DNA of 64,000 bases from Candidatus Heimdallarchaeota archaeon (GTDB lineage: Archaea > Asgardarchaeota > Heimdallarchaeia > Hodarchaeales > Hodarchaeaceae). The position numbers were made by a program, and so were the translations under genes. The notes under the pieces were generated by a model. It saw only the letters and a list, made by a program, of their open reading frames with translations. It ran no database searches and was not told where the DNA came from. The stretch lies in the NCBI GenBank assembly GCA_020353515.1, contig CP070695.1, positions 3,678,277 to 3,742,276 on the forward strand. Direction: 5' to 3'. The first letter of the stretch is position 1. Each line of letters opens with the position of its first letter. Below, one piece after another: positions 1,973-64,000 of this stretch.

Positions 1973-3631
1973 CTATTTTCCATTACCGATCCAGATACAA
2001 TCTTCTAGATCTATTTGAGGGACTCTAAAGAGGGGATCTATTTGAATAAAAACGGGTTTTCGAGTAGATTCAAACCCTATGATTTGCGATCCCTTTTTTG
2101 TGAAAGTAACAGGTTTAATAAACAACTCGCCTTCTGGAGAAGTCCGATACCCAATATCAGTTATCAATTCTATATTTTGTTCTGATTCAACCTTTATTCC
2201 GACTTTTGTTATAAAATTATCCTTCGTTTCTTGTGAATCGACACTAGTAATAGAAATATCGATTTTTGGAACTTGGTTAATCCAGGGGTCTAAATATTCT
2301 ATAATATTGACTGAAGTTTCCTTTTCTAAGCATACAAAGAGTTCATCATAAGTCACATTTTTATAACCATATTCTCTGAAAAAACGTCCCAATCCATTAA
2401 AAAACGCATTGTCTCCAATTTTTTGTCTTAATTGTTCCCATACTAGAGCGCCATAATAATATATTAGAGCAAAATTTTCCTTTATTCCACCAATTTTGTC
2501 AACATTTGACAGAGTTTTATCAGTCTTGAAACCTTTACTTTCAATATAGCTATTTATAAAAAATCTCCTTGCAAGGGCACCTACATTCACATTTGCAATT
2601 TTTTCCATTGCCCAAGCGGTAATGAAATTCGCTCCTCCCTCAGCGAACCACTCAAAGAGATTACCAGAAAAGTAAACATAGAATAAATTCCAATTATGAA
2701 AAATTTCATGAGCACATATTCCTGCCATATAGGGTTCATTCAAGAATTTAGTATCGAAGTAGATAGTATTCCCCTTGTTTTCTGCACCTCCGATGGTTGA
2801 ATCATATGCTCCCACAGTCGCAAACTTGTATGTTTTTGTTCCATTATCACCAAAGTATTCGTAAAATAGCTGTACGATATGGATAAGAGAATGTAATAGA
2901 TCTTTATCTAAAGACAACCCAGGATAAATGTAAAAATCAACACTCAAACCATTTTTGCTTTGACTAAATTTCTGATAAGGTGCAACTGAAAATGCTGGGA
3001 TATTAGGAGTTTTACTTCGGTAATGGTCAAGAATAAATCCGTTTTCCTTTTTAGTAGATTTTAATAAACCAGGGACACAAGAATAATTTCCTTCAGGATA
3101 CTTTATTGTGAGATCAAAAGGTGCCGAAGGTTCTCCATAAAGTACATGAAAATAATGACCACTAAAAGGCTCAATAGCATAACTTACTAGCGGATCAACC
3201 ACAAAAGACCACATATACTCTGGATTACTTTTGTTTATTTCATCAGCGGCCATATGAACGTTTAAATAAATTGAAAGTGTTTGGTTAGGTTTAATGCAAT
3301 TTTGTTCAAAATTAATTTTGATAAATTGATATAGAATTCCCTCAAATCCTTCGTAACGTATAAATTGGTCTTCAAATTGAGTAATTATATATTTATGGTT
3401 AAGTATTTTGTCAGTGGTAAGGTCTTTAATGATGATAGAGTCAATCACTAGATCTCTGTATAAAATGGCTTCGATTTCTTTAATATCTTTATTCGATATA
3501 TTTCTCACTGTGATTTTTTGTTTTGATCTGAATAATCCTTTCTCTGGATCGATTTCATAAAATAAATCATAATTGAGGATTTGGAACAATTTCTCTTTCT
3601 CAAGGGTTTCAATAAAGTACTGAACACGCAT
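1973..3631 (-). CDS. M1 family zinc aminopeptidase
   Basis: GGAEN (GAMEN-like), HEIFH zinc motif, third ligand in FAEG, YYYGA Tyr motif. Confidence 0.85.
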   Translation of the reverse strand: MRVQYFIETLEKEKLFQILNYDLFYEIDPEKGLFRSKQKITVRNISNKDIKEIEAILYRDLVIDSIIIKDLTTDKILNHKYIITQFEDQFIRYEGFEGILYQFIKINFEQNCIKPNQTLSIYLNVHMAADEINKSNPEYMWSFVVDPLVSYAIEPFSGHYFHVLYGEPSAPFDLTIKYPEGNYSCVPGLLKSTKKENGFILDHYRSKTPNIPAFSVAPYQKFSQSKNGLSVDFYIYPGLSLDKDLLHSLIHIVQLFYEYFGDNGTKTYKFATVGAYDSTIGGAENKGNTIYFDTKFLNEPYMAGICAHEIFHNWNLFYVYFSGNLFEWFAEGGANFITAWAMEKIANVNVGALARRFFINSYIESKGFKTDKTLSNVDKIGGIKENFALIYYYGALVWEQLRQKIGDNAFFNGLGRFFREYGYKNVTYDELFVCLEKETSVNIIEYLDPWINQVPKIDISITSVDSQETKDNFITKVGIKVESEQNIELITDIGYRTSPEGELFIKPVTFTKKGSQIIGFESTRKPVFIQIDPLFRVPQIDLEDCIWIGNGK

Positions 3632-3824
3632 AATGTATCAAATATACAAAAAAATGTAAATATCCATATAAGAATATCTTTATTGGCAAATCAATAAATT
3701 TGAGTGGAGAATTCTAGTTTATAGAATTTTTAAATCAAAAAACTGGTAGTTTCAGAAATTTAAATAAACCACCTCTAAGTACTTTTGACTATACCCAAAC
3801 TGTTTTTCAAGAAGGAACGTCTTA

Positions 3825-4772
3825 ATGGATCCATTTTTCATATCATTAGCCTTCATTGGAACTATTGTTATTTCGATAAGTTTTGTATATAGTAAGTTAG
3901 TTCTTGCTCAAATTAAAAATCCAATACACATGTTATTTCTTCAGATAACAATAAACTACATTCTCTTGTTAATTATCTACTTACCAAGTCTCTTAGTGTT
4001 TGGTTCCGAATTAAATGTAAATTTATCCATTAACAATATTTTCATTATATTTTGTTCTGCAATGGCGATTTTCACTGGATTGATCGCATTTTTTATTGGA
4101 TTACATGAGGGAAATGTTTCTGCTGGAGGAGTAATTGTTTCATCAAGAGTAATTGTTAGTCTTTTCTTAGCATGGATGTTCTTAAATGAGCGTTTTCCTT
4201 TCAACTCGTACCTTTTTATTTTTATAGTGTTCATTGGGGTTCTACTGGTATCATGGCAACAAGAGTTGAAATTAAAGGAAATAATCCTGTTTAAATCCAG
4301 TGGTTCGGGGTGGTTCCTAGTTGCTGTTACTTTTTTTGCAATAGGAAATGCATTTATTCGCCTACTTAGCAATCAGATCAATGTTCTCACTCAACTTGTA
4401 TTCCGATTGACATTTCTATTAATTGCTACTCTCCTGACCTACCCCTTATTAAATAGGAAGATTGGAGATAAAAGACACTTAAAGGAAACTCTTGGAAAAC
4501 CAAAACTGGTTTTACAGGCCACAATATATGTGATACTGATAATGATAGCAGATATTACCACTACTCTCGCTATAGGGGAATCATTAACTATTACTGAAGC
4601 TATTACTGCTTTAGAAGGTCTTTTTGTATTTATTTTCATGTTTCTCGTCGCACAAAATGAAACTCTCCTGAACGCTCTTCAAGAACCCTTTGATAAAAAA
4701 ACTCTAACAGTAAGATTTCTAGGAGTAATAATAGCCACTATTGGGATAATTAGTTTTATATCCAGTCTATGA
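3825..4772 (+). CDS. EamA/DMT family transporter
   Basis: About 10 TM helices in two repeats; LAWMFLNERF motif. Confidence 0.8.
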   Translation: MDPFFISLAFIGTIVISISFVYSKLVLAQIKNPIHMLFLQITINYILLLIIYLPSLLVFGSELNVNLSINNIFIIFCSAMAIFTGLIAFFIGLHEGNVSAGGVIVSSRVIVSLFLAWMFLNERFPFNSYLFIFIVFIGVLLVSWQQELKLKEIILFKSSGSGWFLVAVTFFAIGNAFIRLLSNQINVLTQLVFRLTFLLIATLLTYPLLNRKIGDKRHLKETLGKPKLVLQATIYVILIMIADITTTLAIGESLTITEAITALEGLFVFIFMFLVAQNETLLNALQEPFDKKTLTVRFLGVIIATIGIISFISSL

Positions 4773-4829
4773 TAAAAAAAGAAAGGTTATTTATGTGTTT
4801 GATTCTATAAAGAAAAGGAACGATCAACA

Positions 4830-5681
4830 ATGAGCGATTTTTTAAATCTAAAAGGAAAAATGGGTGATTGGGGGCCGTTTGAGCTGGCTAGTTCAAATAC
4901 ATTAATTTTCTCGATGGGAAATCCCTGTGAAGGTCATGGACCTGCATTATCTCCTGATAATGATAGTCGCTGTGCTAGTTTCGTAGCTTATCATGTATCA
5001 GAACGATCTGGAGCCAAATTTGTAGCTCACATACCGTATACTACTGATCAAGTTGGGGATATAGCATTAGATTGGAGTCCTGCTTATATACCAATGGAAG
5101 AATGTGTGAATAATTGTGTAGCTTTTATAGAATACCATTGTAAGGTTCTTCAAGAAATAGGTATTGAATTTTCTAGAATCATCATTATAAATGGTCATGG
5201 TGGTAATTATGGAGTTGATAAATTCTCTATTTGGGACGAGTTAAAAACTAAATTCAGATTGTCTGATTTAAAATTTATAAACACATATGAGGTAGATATT
5301 CATGAAGTCCTTCAATCACAAGATTTCTCTACTGAAACTCATGACGCTTATTTGACTGCAGTACAAACAGGAGGGCATGCAGATACTATTGAACACTCAA
5401 TTGCGACATTATATAGTGGAATCGATTATGGGAAGTTCTACCAAATGAATAAATTCATTAAAACAGATATAGGAGCTGCTTTGAAAAAATGGCCTATTTT
5501 AGGAGGATTAGGAGGTTACCTCAAATTTGGTGGAGAACGTTATGAACCGTTGAGAAAGGTAGGACTAGAACGGTGTTTGAGACAATTTGAAGAAGATGGA
5601 CAAATCTATTTATTTCCAGAATTAGCCCAAATTGTGATGGAACATCTTGTAAAAAGGATTACCAATATCATAAGATCTTAA
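4830..5681 (+). CDS. Creatininase/ArfB/MftE-family amidohydrolase
   Basis: GNPCEGHGPAL...D, NGHGGN and HAD..E metal-binding motifs. Confidence 0.8.
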   Translation: MSDFLNLKGKMGDWGPFELASSNTLIFSMGNPCEGHGPALSPDNDSRCASFVAYHVSERSGAKFVAHIPYTTDQVGDIALDWSPAYIPMEECVNNCVAFIEYHCKVLQEIGIEFSRIIIINGHGGNYGVDKFSIWDELKTKFRLSDLKFINTYEVDIHEVLQSQDFSTETHDAYLTAVQTGGHADTIEHSIATLYSGIDYGKFYQMNKFIKTDIGAALKKWPILGGLGGYLKFGGERYEPLRKVGLERCLRQFEEDGQIYLFPELAQIVMEHLVKRITNIIRS

Positions 5682-5720
5682 AAGGATTTCTGTAAAATAA
5701 TTGTTTAAAGTGGTTGAAAA

Positions 5721-6725
5721 ATGAAAGCTCAACATATAATATTCCCTTCACCTGATATAATAGAACTAGAAGAGTTTGAGTTTGATATCACAGATTTGGG
5801 AAAGACAGATATAGCAATAGAAACAGAGTTCAGTATTGTCAGTACTGGGACAGAGCTAGCAATACTTAAGGGTATAGAATCGTGGGCTCCTTTACCTTTT
5901 GTCCCTGGGTATGGATCTATCGGAAAAATTATAGCAATGGGTAAAGCCATAAAACAATTAAAGATAGGTGATCGTGTATTCACCTTTGGTAAGCATACTA
6001 GCCATGGTTTAACATCTGTACTTACTCTTCCAGTACCAGATGGTCTAGATAGTTTGGAAGCTGTTATTACTAGGATGGCTGCAGTTTCGATAACTGCAAA
6101 TCGCGTATCACAAGCTGAACTTGGTGATTATGTTTCTATATTCGGGTTAGGGTTGGTTGGTAATTTATCAGCACAATTATTCGCACTTCAGGGATGTGAA
6201 GTGATTGGAATTGACATTTCTCAATCAAGACTTGACTTAGCTAAAAAATGTGGTATAAAACATACTATAAATCCCTTGGAAGAGGACATAAATAAAGAAA
6301 TATATGCTATTACTAATGGGGAGATGTGTAGCTCTGTAATTGAAGCCACTGGGCTGCCATCAGTTGCTGAACAAGCAATTACGTGTGCTGGTGTATTAGG
6401 AGAACTTATCCTGCTTGGAAGTCCAAGGGAAGAATATCAAACTAATTTAACGGACTTTCTCAATCGAAGCCATCTCATGACACATGGTTGTATAACAATC
6501 AAGGGAGCATTAGAATGGCGTTTTCCTGTCAAGAGAAATACAATATCCAAACATTCTATTGAAAGGAATTTAGAGATTATCTTCAAATTTATCCAAGGAA
6601 ACAAACTAAAAGTTTCTAACCTTATTACTCATGTATTATCCCCCTCGAAGTGTAAAGAAGCGTATGAGGGGTTAAAAAACAATAAAGATGAATATATTGG
6701 CGTTATTTTCGATTGGAAGAAATAA
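5721..6725 (+). CDS. Medium-chain dehydrogenase/reductase (BchC-like subgroup)
   Basis: SIVSTGTE (no catalytic Zn Cys), PGY, Rossmann GLGLVG. Confidence 0.8.
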   Translation: MKAQHIIFPSPDIIELEEFEFDITDLGKTDIAIETEFSIVSTGTELAILKGIESWAPLPFVPGYGSIGKIIAMGKAIKQLKIGDRVFTFGKHTSHGLTSVLTLPVPDGLDSLEAVITRMAAVSITANRVSQAELGDYVSIFGLGLVGNLSAQLFALQGCEVIGIDISQSRLDLAKKCGIKHTINPLEEDINKEIYAITNGEMCSSVIEATGLPSVAEQAITCAGVLGELILLGSPREEYQTNLTDFLNRSHLMTHGCITIKGALEWRFPVKRNTISKHSIERNLEIIFKFIQGNKLKVSNLITHVLSPSKCKEAYEGLKNNKDEYIGVIFDWKK

Positions 6726-6759
6726 AGAATCATCAAGTCTTCGATAAAATATAAGAAGC

Positions 6760-7551
6760 TCAAAGTAAAGTAATGAGTCGTCCTGTCCAGCCTATATTTA
6801 ATTGATTTACTCCCCTATATGAATTTACATAACCAAACTCAATCCTTACTCTATCTTCAACTTTCACCTGTGAAATCTGTTCGCTCCACAATACTAAAAC
6901 GATTTTACCCGTCGCATCACCAAGTTCTGCGTTAGCTACATTGAGTATTTTTCCTGTAGATCGGGAGGTCACTTTTCTAGATGATGCTATTGTAAGAATA
7001 ACCCCCTCTACTGTAATATCCTTCAATCCATCTTTTAATTCCCCTATTTTTGTCATCTCGTAAGGTGACGATGAGTCCATTACTTTCTGATACCAAACTC
7101 CTCTCCAATTGGAATCTCCCTTTTCCCATCCAACCTGTATAAACCCTAGCTTCTCGTAGAAGTGCCTTGTCCTCACATTCCACTCAGGAGTGCCTAATGT
7201 CCAAATTTGGACATCGGGATACAATCCCCAAAGTAATTCCATTGCTTGGGTACCAATACCTTTGTTATGGTGAGGAGGATCTACAAAAATTCCTTCTAAT
7301 ACATGATGTTTTTTTCCCCCAGACCTAGCGAAAATACCACCGACAATATTATCATCTAAGAGTATTTTGAAGTAATCCATAAATTGCATAAATCGTTGGT
7401 GGGATGATGGAGAGTCATATCCTGGAGGCCCTCCAGGCCCAGGCGCGCCCACTTCAACGTCACTTTCATAAGCTTTTTTTGATATTGACGCGAGCTCCTC
7501 AGCATCCTTTTTCTCTGCTCGTACCATTCTAATTTCAATCATGTTCTCCAT
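6760..7551 (-). CDS. GNAT acetyltransferase fused to an SSB/RPA-type OB fold
   Basis: N-terminal FVDPPHHNKGIG and FYEKLGF. C-terminal KIGELKDG..., LGDATGKIVLVLW, YVNSYRG matching single-OB archaeal SSB. Confidence 0.85.
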   Translation of the reverse strand: MENMIEIRMVRAEKKDAEELASISKKAYESDVEVGAPGPGGPPGYDSPSSHQRFMQFMDYFKILLDDNIVGGIFARSGGKKHHVLEGIFVDPPHHNKGIGTQAMELLWGLYPDVQIWTLGTPEWNVRTRHFYEKLGFIQVGWEKGDSNWRGVWYQKVMDSSSPYEMTKIGELKDGLKDITVEGVILTIASSRKVTSRSTGKILNVANAELGDATGKIVLVLWSEQISQVKVEDRVRIEFGYVNSYRGVNQLNIGWTGRLITLL

Positions 7552-7660
7552 TCTCTATTTTAAATAGGCAATTAAAGTGATAAAGAGTGATTCACTCCTA
7601 TAATAGCAAATCGAACAATACTAATATTAATCAGTTTGTTGTGGTAATGAAATTTTTTCT

Positions 7661-7707
7661 GTGAATAACTCCATAATAGCTGTTGAAATTATTATGGAGA
7701 AAATCAC
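7661..7707 (-). terminator. Stem-loop downstream of the ROK kinase gene (possible terminator or processing signal)
   Basis: Perfect 10-bp inverted repeat CTCCATAATA (7669-7678)/TATTATGGAG (7690-7699), flanked by GTGA/TCAC. Confidence 0.4.
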
Positions 7708-7719
7708 TCAGTTAAAGAG

Positions 7720-8739
7720 TTATTCATCTGTAAACATGAACACTAGTTTCGCTGCTCCATACAATGAGGCGTCACCACCCAGTGAAGAAGACAATATTCT
7801 AATTTCTCCCTTCTCAACCTTTTTTGCTAAATAACGCTGAGAATAATTGGTCACAATCTCAATGACACGATCCAAAAATAGCTCAGCAGACTGGCCCACT
7901 CCTCCCCCAATGACAACTATTTCTGGAGCTAAGGTGCTAATGAGGTTTGATACAACAATACCTAGGTATACCGCGGTTTCTTGCACTATCTTCAAAGCAA
8001 GTGGGTCACCCTTCCTTGTGGCTTCAAAAATCAATTCAGAGGTTATCATATTAATATCGTTGTTCACCATATCCATCAAGATAGTTTTAGATCCTCTACG
8101 TATTTCTTCAATGACTCGCCTTGCAATACCAGTGCCAGAACAGAAGCTCTCAAAACATCCTTCATCATAAACCTTATCCATGAAGCTGGGGCCAAGTAAC
8201 GTCCATCCTATTGACCCCGCAAGCCCCCCAACTCCATCGTACGGTTTTCCATCTAAAAGAATACTGCTTCCGATACCTGTTCCCAAAATGATATAAATAG
8301 CATTTTTCGCTTCACGGGCAACACCTACCCATTCTTCACCAAGTATGGGGGTAACATGGTCATGTACTGCAAATATCGGGAGTGATTTACCGAGATTTTC
8401 TTGCAGCCATGTTGTTAATACAGAACCTTGGATTTGTGGGATGTTCGTCTCCCACTCAATTTTATCGTCATATTTTTCCACGAGTGTGGCACAAGCAATC
8501 CCAATTCCTTTAATTTTTAATCCATTTGTTTCTGACCTGTCCAGTCCTTTTTGTATCAGCTTTGCAATCTGTGACATTAAATCTGTTGTATCTCCCTGAA
8601 TAGTAGGTTCTTCAATTCGGAATACTATTTTTCCTTTTGAATTAATTATGGCAGAAGAAATCTTGGTTCCTCCGACATCGACCCCAATAGCAAACAATTC
8701 GTTCTCAAGGTTAGTATCAGGAGACAAGTCTTTTCCCAA
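7720..8739 (-). CDS. ROK family sugar kinase (glucokinase/GlcNAc kinase-like)
   Basis: GVDVGGTKI, LGTGIG, GCFESFCSG, GGGV. Confidence 0.9.
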   Translation of the reverse strand: MGKDLSPDTNLENELFAIGVDVGGTKISSAIINSKGKIVFRIEEPTIQGDTTDLMSQIAKLIQKGLDRSETNGLKIKGIGIACATLVEKYDDKIEWETNIPQIQGSVLTTWLQENLGKSLPIFAVHDHVTPILGEEWVGVAREAKNAIYIILGTGIGSSILLDGKPYDGVGGLAGSIGWTLLGPSFMDKVYDEGCFESFCSGTGIARRVIEEIRRGSKTILMDMVNNDINMITSELIFEATRKGDPLALKIVQETAVYLGIVVSNLISTLAPEIVVIGGGVGQSAELFLDRVIEIVTNYSQRYLAKKVEKGEIRILSSSLGGDASLYGAAKLVFMFTDE

Positions 8740-62820: not shown

Positions 62821-63735
62821 ATGTCCAAATACGATCGTCTAATAACACTGAAAGAGGCGGTGATGTTTTCTAATCATGCAGAAGAGAATATTCGACTTCA
62901 AATAGAGCGTGGGTTATTAAAAAAATATGATAAAAATGGAAAACTGCTGAATGATCCTTTAAGAGTGAAAGGCTTCTTTAAACTTTCTGAGATAATGTCA
63001 GTTTATAACATAAAAGATCCAGAAGAAGTTAGGAAAGAATTTTTTGCACGAAAAAAAAGTCCTGATAGTGCGAAAGACATTCTACCTGAAAATGTCATTG
63101 TCCTAAGTTCCTCTGAAATGAATAGAATGGATCACATTGTGGAGGGGAGTATTGATACATGGATTCTCTTTCCAAAGTACTCTTTAACTGAAAAACAAGA
63201 ACCTGTGACTTCCACTGAGGTCAATAAATCACCAGTTCTAAAAGATGTCTTGGAATATCTGAATCATTCTTTAAGAGTACTAAAAACTCAAGGAAATATC
63301 ATTATCCATGCAATTCCAAGTTATGCGCCTTATTTTGGTGTAAAATTAACTAAACTGGGCTTTTTCTTCAAATATTGGATTGTTTTCAATACAGCAATCC
63401 CTCACAAACGAAATTTTAGAAGATTTACACCCGTGGCTAATAGTATCCTTTATTATGTAAGAACTCCCAAAAACTTCAGAATTAATCGAGTTAGAATACC
63501 TTATCGTGTTTGTTCATTTTGTAATGAACCGTTAAAAGACTATGGGGGAAAAAAACACCTTAGACATATTGAGGGAATGGTTCTATCAGATATTTGGCAT
63601 TTTGAAAAAAAGCAATTAACTCCTGAAAATCACCTCCATTCTACAATTCTTAAACGTATAATTGATTTGTCGAGCACATCTTCAACCACCCTCTTACTTG
63701 CTCCTTTTGATGGAGAGAAACCTCATGAAGATTAG
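62821..63735 (+). CDS. HTH-fused, catalytically degenerate beta-class DNA methyltransferase-like protein
   Basis: N-terminal ITLKEA...IERGLL HTH. MTase scaffold (GSID..ILFPKY, RVLKTQG, CSFC..LKDYGG, LSDIW, LKRII) with FPKY for DPPY, ending at APFDGE instead of DPFxGxG. Confidence 0.7.
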   Translation: MSKYDRLITLKEAVMFSNHAEENIRLQIERGLLKKYDKNGKLLNDPLRVKGFFKLSEIMSVYNIKDPEEVRKEFFARKKSPDSAKDILPENVIVLSSSEMNRMDHIVEGSIDTWILFPKYSLTEKQEPVTSTEVNKSPVLKDVLEYLNHSLRVLKTQGNIIIHAIPSYAPYFGVKLTKLGFFFKYWIVFNTAIPHKRNFRRFTPVANSILYYVRTPKNFRINRVRIPYRVCSFCNEPLKDYGGKKHLRHIEGMVLSDIWHFEKKQLTPENHLHSTILKRIIDLSSTSSTTLLLAPFDGEKPHED

Positions 63736-64000
63736 AAATAAGATAATCTGTGGGGATTGTATTAGTGAAATGATGAACCTCCCCTCTAACATCATAGATT
63801 TAGCATTTGCAGATCCTCCTTATAATTTAAATAAGGATTATGGTGTATATGCAGATTCTAATTCCCCTATTGATTATCTAGAGTGGACAGAGAAATGGTT
63901 ATCCGAAATATTACGATTATTGAAACCAGGAGGGTCATTCTACCTCTTGAATCTCCCAAAATGGGCCATTCATCATGCAGTGTTTCTAGATCAATTCTTA
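63725..64000 (+). CDS. Beta-class N4-C/N6-A DNA methyltransferase (5' part; runs off the window; not in ORF track)
   Basis: MKIRNKIICGDC...IDLAFADPPYN...RLLKPGGS; open to the window end; GGAG RBS; overlaps the upstream stop. Confidence 0.9.
   Translation, partial: MKIRNKIICGDCISEMMNLPSNIIDLAFADPPYNLNKDYGVYADSNSPIDYLEWTEKWLSEILRLLKPGGSFYLLNLPKWAIHHAVFLDQFL

Follow-up and report, generated by a model that had tools for sequence, protein, structure and literature searches.

A putative two-gene beta-class DNA methyltransferase with a catalytically dead first half in a Heimdallarchaeota genome

Class beta methyltransferases (MTases) have been argued to need dimerization with a division of labor between the subunits, the examples being CcrM, EcoP15I Mod2, MTA1/MTA9 and METTL3/METTL14 (PMC7544214). 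In CcrM only one subunit acts at a given site, and in MTA1c separate DNA-binding parts have been added (PMC7544214). EcoP15I Mod2 is described as a beta-class dimer in which one subunit recognizes the site and the other methylates (PMC7544214; PMC4490356). Here we describe two overlapping genes, A and B, from a Candidatus Heimdallarchaeota archaeon. They lie at the end of the stretch of 64,000 nucleotides that was analyzed (hereafter the window; contig CP070695.1, G000:C1:3678277-3742276), which belongs to a 4.94-Mb genome in a single contig. Gene A encodes an MTase-like protein that lacks catalytic motifs and gene B encodes an apparently complete enzyme. We think it likely that the two proteins are the halves of one beta-class DNA amino-MTase, an obligate pseudo-dimer in which B would be the sole catalytic subunit; the enzyme is probably an N6-adenine methylase. 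The features are as follows, in coordinates of the window:

62821..63735, plus strand: gene A, 304-aa putative non-catalytic paralogue of beta-class MTases with a predicted N-terminal winged helix (open reading frame; match to PF01555, N6_N4_Mtase, over residues 140-285, scoring 31.6 bits where the cut-off is 26.7; 35 full-length homologues)
62821..63075, plus strand: N-terminal domain of A, residues 1 to about 85, candidate MerR/excisionase-like winged helix-turn-helix (HTH; model described below)
63169..63180, plus strand: degenerate motif IV of A, FPKY opposite the DPPY of B (A-B alignment; residues of this column in the 35 homologues)
63511..63567, plus strand: most conserved element in the region of A that resembles a target recognition domain (TRD), C231-x2-C234 ... 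K239-DYGGKKHLRH249 (invariant columns)
63700..63717, plus strand: motif I remnant of A, APFDGE, aligned to DPFLGVGTT of B; its codons include the GGAG of B
63725..63735, plus strand: 11-nt overlap of the two genes, with B read in the +1 frame; the TAG of A is at 63733-63735
63725..64000, plus strand: 5' part of gene B, apparently active beta-class MTase, DPPY at 63812-63823

Gene B continues beyond the window and encodes 265 residues in full (L002 3002-3799), ending 522 nt past the window edge. It matches PF01555 over the whole profile (positions 1-221, E=1.6e-48), and DPPY at residues 30-33 and DPFLGVGTT at residues 204-212 stand in the order expected of the beta class. The NCBIfam families nearest to B are the YhdJ-type and CcrM adenine MTases, with matches below the cut-offs of these families. 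An earlier reading of the window from its sequence only had placed the start of a second MTase with an intact DPPY 11 nt before the stop of A, behind a GGAG ribosome binding site, and the genes do lie in this way, with the ATG at 63725 and GGAG at 63712-63715.

The same sequence-only reading had described A as a 304-aa protein that keeps the beta-class scaffold and a CxxC region, has FPKY in place of DPPY, and stops inside the S-adenosylmethionine (SAM)-binding motif. Each of these points stands. Besides the PF01555 match, a profile search against the PDB gives E=1.2e-13, and the AlphaFold model of A (mean predicted local distance difference test score, pLDDT, 76, higher in the core) has M.MboIIA, CcrM and M.BceJIV as its best fold matches, with a Foldseek E=2e-10 to M.MboIIA. 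In pairwise alignment A is about 20% identical to B, of which it is a distant paralogue. The position of motif IV, aligned with B, is degenerate throughout the 35 homologues: it holds F, S, A or L, then mostly P, a variable residue, and Y or F. None of the aligned sequences has (D/N/S)PP(Y/F), and the first and third positions are unconserved. The A of the window stops six residues past APFDGE, the string that aligns with DPFLGVGTT of B; all its homologues end 6-12 residues past APFDG, where B continues with GVGTT...GIE. In the alignment with B, three parts of the SAM-binding half are missing from A: the glycine loop, helix A and strand beta-2. As a fold, A belongs to PF01555 by a significant profile and structure match; as an enzyme it lacks both hallmarks of the class, the catalytic motif IV and motif I with the SAM-binding half. 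A-type genes should not be counted as active methylases in genome annotation. The pair C231-x2-C234 (63511-63522) is invariant among the A homologues, in a stretch that falls within the interface predicted for A and B.

This interface comes from a complex prediction with family alignments for both chains, in three runs and with three controls. The interaction score (ipSAE, interaction prediction score from aligned errors) was 0.87, 0.86 and 0.87 for A-B and 0.00 for the best control; for comparison, 58 of 80 solved complexes attain this mark, as do 2 of 110 mismatched pairs. The A-B runs share at least 87% of their contacts, which number 174-188, and the partner pLDDT is at least 84. Modeling of the pair, which the sequence-only reading had suggested as a check, thus supports binding. 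Residues 166-262 of A are predicted to pack against residues 78-164 of B through the P-x-[WY] helix that follows motif V/VI and through the Cys-bearing TRD loops. Residues 231-270 of A, disordered in the model of the monomer, lie in this interface; the N-terminal domain with the HTH lies outside it and makes no contact with B. Because the interface segments of A and B are homologous by alignment, the model can be read as a pseudo-symmetric dimer that resembles the dimers formed by the homodimeric enzymes related to it. M.MboIIA, CcrM, M.BceJIV and M.RsrI, the best sequence and structure matches of A and B, have the same fold and the same motif order IV-TRD-I, and beta-class homodimers make contact by homologous segments, as predicted for A-B. 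Such homodimers consist of two identical active chains, whereas in A-B one chain is permanently without the SAM-binding half and motif IV. An invariant Cys pair occurs in a TRD-like loop of either module, C231/C234 in A and C140/C145 in B (L002 3419-3436). The interface as predicted includes both loops, and the cysteines may form zinc sites there, separate or shared.

The homologues of A that came from a word-indexed search number 39. Nearly all have 301-319 aa, at 38-76% identity, and their source names point to Hodarchaeales, Heimdallarchaeota, "Promethearchaeota" and Odinarchaeota. The alignment of the 35 full-length members has 50 invariant columns. Mean column conservation is 0.74 in the N-terminal 95 residues, 0.73 in the TRD-like stretch (C231-x2-C234, KDYGGKKHLxH) and 0.72 in the C-terminal helix and strand; the least conserved part is the region of motif IV, at 0.58. 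Ratios of nonsynonymous to synonymous substitution rates (dN/dS, NG86) are 0.07-0.25 for A and 0.06-0.19 for B, which are rough values, as dS is mostly >1 and largely saturated. A check of this kind across Asgard genomes had been proposed with the sequence-only reading, and both the pair and its degenerate motifs prove to be kept.

Given these figures, A could hardly be a functionless, decaying remnant of a tandem methylase duplicate beside a B that works alone. The absence of a catalytic motif and the truncation inside motif I are what such a remnant would show. Intact homologues are found, however, down to 38% identity; their stop position and the coupling signal described below are conserved, and the low dN/dS argues against decay as well. 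Because the 35 full-length homologues keep both the stop and the degenerate motif at a low dN/dS, A does not appear to be decayed, and a pseudogene or frameshift origin was rejected on the same grounds. The distribution of B is a further argument. A PF01555 gene of 265-270 aa overlaps the end of A in a complete Heimdall-labelled genome, on an Odin contig and on a Hod contig, and an overlapping B follows A likewise in every further locus with enough flank. When profiles of A and of B were compared with 400 Asgard genomes, both matched the same ones except for G075 and G077, both represented here by short contigs in which the partner is taken to be cut off by the contig end; with these two so explained, B never occurs without A. 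Elsewhere in the 400 genomes, B-type genes are found only within fused proteins. We regard the remnant explanation as scarcely credible.

The fused proteins connect the archaeal pair to a much larger family. In two other Asgard families the A profile also matches uninterrupted single open reading frames of 573-592 aa, with an N-terminal dead module to which A is 30-33% identical and a C-terminal active module to which B is 46-49% identical. In an exhaustive profile search of 1.84 billion representatives, 513 proteins matched at E<=1e-3 and 175 at E<=1e-10, and many of these are 530-660 aa long with two matched stretches. An alignment of 30 fused proteins gives the order dead N-module, variable linker, B-like module. 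The N-module has neither motif IV nor motif I and keeps an invariant CxxC and KD(W/Y)GGKKH...SD(V/I)W; the B-like module has an invariant DPPYNL and DPFxGxGTT. By simple motif rules, at least 27 clusters (50% identity) have the full dead/active arrangement. Thirteen further proteins consist of a single module in which DPPF precedes the KDYGGK element; motif I is present in some of them as well, and from these motifs the thirteen appear to be active relatives of the A-type module. Modules that are fused across many lineages are a classic sign that the split products act together. The sequence-only reading had held that homologues in the form of single fused proteins would speak against a two-subunit enzyme. 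Such homologues do exist, yet they keep the same dead module, which points to a functional link and not to decay.

Members of the family are also found in bacteria, and fused ones make up many clusters of bacterial or metagenomic sequences. One fused member (HVF89568.1) comes from a Blastocatellia bacterium, and two bacterial-type fused members stand directly beside BanI-family restriction genes. A bacterial form that was split independently occurs on Thermodesulfovibrionales contig BAAHHO010000012.1 (L028 3146-5847), where P0042/P0202 joins an Xre HTH_3 domain to a dead A-like module; the B-like gene overlaps it by 17 nt, and a convergent DpnII-like nuclease gene follows, with an AbiEii gene nearby. 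Because of the fused plan and the bacterial members beside restriction genes, the family as a whole is best read as a type II restriction-modification (R-M) methylase with a built-in dead module. Databases label its members just "DNA methyltransferase" or "hypothetical protein". No description of a tandem or split dead/active family was found in the literature on Asgard methylases, beta-class pseudo-dimers and tandem inactive domains (a search that did not cover REBASE), and profile searches of the PDB returned no entry with the tandem plan; a family of tandem dead/active type II methylases is thus apparently undescribed so far. The pair in the window would then be a split form of a widespread fused family and not an archaeal invention. 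This is one part of the sequence-only reading that does not stand. Its main proposal, an MTase of one catalytic and one non-catalytic subunit, is favored by the adjacency and co-occurrence of the genes, by purifying selection on A, by the fused homologues and by the predicted complex.

Compared with the fused tandem methylases, A and B have the same module order and the same motifs, CxxC...KD(W/Y)GGKKH...SD(V/I)W followed by DPPY...DPFxGxGTT. The fused proteins are one chain of 570-600 aa with an HNH_repeat tail and no N-terminal HTH, the bacterial ones beside BanI-like genes; the version in the window is split, A having a MerR/Xis-like head and B lacking a tail, and no nuclease is recognized nearby. 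The tail (PF18780, HNH_repeat) was found at the C terminus of four of the five fused proteins that were scanned against Pfam, and it is missing from the split Asgard B. It may be a DNA-contacting accessory that the winged helix of A replaces. In P0044, P0056, P0066 and P0142, the last 50-60 residues are this homing-endonuclease-associated repeat, with the pattern "LGRxPTxEE...W..A...A".

A tree of the B-like domains was built by maximum likelihood and read with its root on the single-module proteins of A type that appear active. In it, the split B sequences of Asgard archaea, 11 in number, group together (99/93) within the fused forms, and the bacterial split B is placed elsewhere, beside a fused protein. 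On this tree a fused ancestor has therefore probably been split independently at least twice. After the Asgard fission, A is found with a new N-terminal domain and B without the HNH_repeat tail.

The junction of the two genes also bears on how they are expressed. In 10 of 13 loci that were checked, including all those of Hod/Heimdall type, a GGAG-type sequence stands 7-10 nt before the ATG of B, and in the Hod/Heimdall type it sits within the conserved F-D-G-E codons of A. The overlap is 11, 17, 20 or 38 nt in orthologues, with B in the +1 frame wherever this was checked. The constant frame and the existence of fused homologues would both suit a programmed +1 frameshift at the end of A that yields a single A-B protein. 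We consider this extremely improbable: B has an ATG of its own, in most of the loci behind the GGAG-type sequence, the length and sequence of the overlap vary by lineage with no shared slippery site seen, and re-pairing of the P-site tRNA is not evident from the sequence GAU-UAG. Translational coupling of two separate chains, through the GGAG within the last conserved codons of A and the 11-nt overlap, would account for the same junction.

Several observations weigh against A and B as obligate halves of one enzyme. The complex score may be partly a memory of solved homodimers (M.MboIIA, M.RsrI, CcrM, M.BceJIV), in which case it would reflect likeness and not binding. Conservation at the interface positions of A exceeds that elsewhere in the domain by a small margin (0.72 vs 0.64, p=0.035). 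The direction of change, fission and not fusion, depends on the outgroup root and on weak deep nodes (83/78), and the saturation of dS noted above blurs the estimates of selection. The A-B module, moreover, occurs in only part of its genus, about 12 of 22 genomes; because it is missing from several that are 91-94% complete, it is an accessory module, dispensable within the genus.

The pairing of A with B can nevertheless be put as a mechanism. The pair would have been born by fission of a fused gene at the linker between the modules. B, with DPPY, the FxGxG loop and a full SAM-binding half, would be the only catalytic subunit. A would have lost motif IV and the SAM-binding half past strand beta-1 and kept the dimer face and the Cys/His-rich TRD-like element, and it would pair with B through the face that beta-class homodimers use. 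We infer that A serves as the second, non-catalytic, DNA-contacting half, as the second subunit does in CcrM, EcoP15I Mod2, MTA1/MTA9 and METTL3/METTL14, and that its MerR/Xis-like winged helix adds DNA affinity or targeting in place of the HNH_repeat tail of the fused relatives. In the genome of the window, the pair would act as a solitary chromosomal methylase module without an adjacent nuclease, co-inherited with a third gene, C, which is described below.

The nature of the N-terminal domain of A is suggested by its fold. No Pfam HTH family matches residues 1-134 of A, or any of the 35 members, at E<=5, and NCBIfam likewise gives the domain no name. The separate model built for residues 1-95 (pLDDT 82.5) shows two more helices besides a helix-turn-helix and a beta wing. 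In Foldseek no match to these residues falls below 0.001 (best E>=0.085), and the list consists mostly of MerR-family domains (GlnR, TnrA, CarH, BldC, CueR). The VIA all-against-representatives search gives Z scores of 4.5-5.1 and root-mean-square deviations of 2.0-3.7 Å over 49-73 residues, with matches to Rad14/XPA, mycobacteriophage Xis, GlnR, TnrA, BldC, TniQ, transposon excisionases and SoxR. An Atlas feature search gives 0.78 to an HTH_17 cluster, which is a lead only. The MerR/excisionase-like HTH of the sequence-only reading therefore finds some support at the level of the fold, with modest scores, and no counterpart among sequence profiles. We hold it with moderate confidence to be a reasonable reading of the modeled fold, and the domain would be expected to bind DNA.

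Such a domain raises the question of whether A is mainly a transcription regulator, an HTH protein comparable to R-M controllers or to the repressor region at the N terminus of some methylases, whose degenerate MTase domain senses B or SAM and tunes B (and C) with no part in catalysis. The winged helix invites this reading, as does the bacterial P0042/P0202, where an A-like module carries an HTH_3 domain of the Xre type found in R-M controllers and its operon also includes genes for a B-like protein and a DpnII-like nuclease. Against it, dozens of fused proteins without an N-terminal HTH retain the dead module; for this reason the HTH cannot, to judge from the family alignment, be the whole function of the dead module. 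The highest conservation of A is found in the TRD-like/interface region as well as in the HTH, and the contact predicted with B is extensive. At 11 orthologous loci the 160 nt before A hold no inverted repeat that is conserved, a result that applies to palindromic sites. Compared with the controller (C) proteins of R-M systems, A has neither an HTH_3 match nor a conserved upstream palindrome, and the autoregulation that had been suggested for it is not supported. A role mainly in regulation seems unlikely to us, and regulation and partnership could both be true.

Gene C lies 4 nt after B and starts 527 nt past the end of the window (L002 3804-5750, G000:C1:3742803-3744746). Its product, of 648 aa, is an NPPY methylase of the gamma class in which Eco57I, N6_Mtase and TaqI_C domains are recognized but none of a nuclease. 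Within the genus it is found in the same 12 of 22 genomes as A-B, and in G069 and G070 it keeps the syntenic site alone. G070 has an Odin-type A-B pair away from this site (L035, G070:C1:262000-277000, 3591-8207), whose A is 38% identical to that of the window; next to it are a metallo-beta-lactamase gene and a 692-aa gamma-class N6_Mtase/Eco57I protein. One possible reason for the co-inheritance of A-B and C is that two methylases serve the two strands of an asymmetric site. Upstream of A, on the minus strand, are a geranylgeranyl-reductase-like flavin adenine dinucleotide (FAD) protein and a beta-eliminating lyase, and C is followed downstream by the genes of a membrane-anchored protein and a ParA-like ATPase; the same gene order is seen in two other genomes. 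The sequence-only reading had proposed a search of the rest of the locus for a restriction nuclease. By Pfam and PADLOC, none was recognized near the locus in the genome of the window or at the syntenic loci, so the archaeal module, unless a nuclease of an unfamiliar kind is encoded there, does not qualify as a type II R-M system, whereas its bacterial relatives do, with RE_BanI and DpnII-like genes adjacent.

A syntenic block of the geranylgeranyl-reductase-like gene, A, B and C that recurs in several genomes with no nuclease might instead suggest a housekeeping RNA amino-MTase, acting on rRNA or tRNA with an inactive partner. The fused gene of G307, a 100%-complete Asgard genome, which is located among housekeeping genes, fits this as well. 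It is very improbable all the same, considering that about half of the genomes of the genus have no module, that bacterial members stand beside BanI-like and DpnII-like restriction genes, and that the nearest profiles and structures are all those of DNA methylases. At the fused locus of another Asgard family (L037 2-667, G143:C89), a fragment of an SPPY PF01555 methylase is directly upstream of the fused gene, and an unannotated 216-aa convergent open reading frame is downstream.

A more specific proposal, which we put forward tentatively and hold to be doubtful at present, is that A-B is a dedicated chromosomal N6-methyladenine (6mA) "writer" and not a defense methylase. In it, a winged-helix pseudo-enzyme would steer one active subunit, and the co-inherited gamma-class methylase would mark the other strand or a different motif. 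If true, the archaea closest to eukaryotes would have a prokaryotic counterpart, of independent origin, to the design of MTA1/MTA9-p1/p2 and METTL3/METTL14, and the writer would be a tractable system for asking why beta-class methylases hard-wire a dead partner. In eukaryotes the division of labor has been fixed as active/inactive heterodimers (METTL3/14, MTA1/9); the same solution would have been fixed here in prokaryotes, first as a tandem protein of type II R-M and then as a split, coupled pair with a DNA-binding head (Heimdall, Hod, Odin). The fused and split forms offer a natural pair for probing what the non-catalytic half contributes.

The likeness to METTL3-METTL14, drawn in the sequence-only reading, and to the ciliate MTA1-MTA9-p1-p2 is one of plan: an active chain is joined to an inactive paralogue in which motif IV is eroded. 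It holds as an analogy and not as kinship. The fold match of the A model to the MT-A70 heterodimers is weak (E about 1e-6 to 1e-5), A is truncated in contrast to METTL14 with its complete fold, and PF05063 (MT-A70) is absent from the Pfam matches of A and B at E<=1. In a published survey, moreover, Asgard MT-A70 sequences were not sister to the eukaryotic ones (PMC12695648), and an MT-A70 ancestry of A-B is not supported. EcoP15I Mod2 differs in being a homodimer of active chains that works with a Res helicase-nuclease, and its profile match to the fused family is marginal. The C5 methylases M.AquI and M.EcoHK31I are made of two polypeptides from adjacent or overlapping genes, with a single catalytic domain in two pieces. 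They resemble A-B in that two gene products are needed; A-B would instead consist of two modules of MTase fold, one of them dead.

The genome of the window is unusually rich in beta-class methylases, with 37 PF01555 matches. Several of its open reading frames have two such matches (e.g., 4732730-4734463 and 4137449-4139101), among them frames of 813 aa and 689 aa, and some of these are possibly tandem proteins as well.

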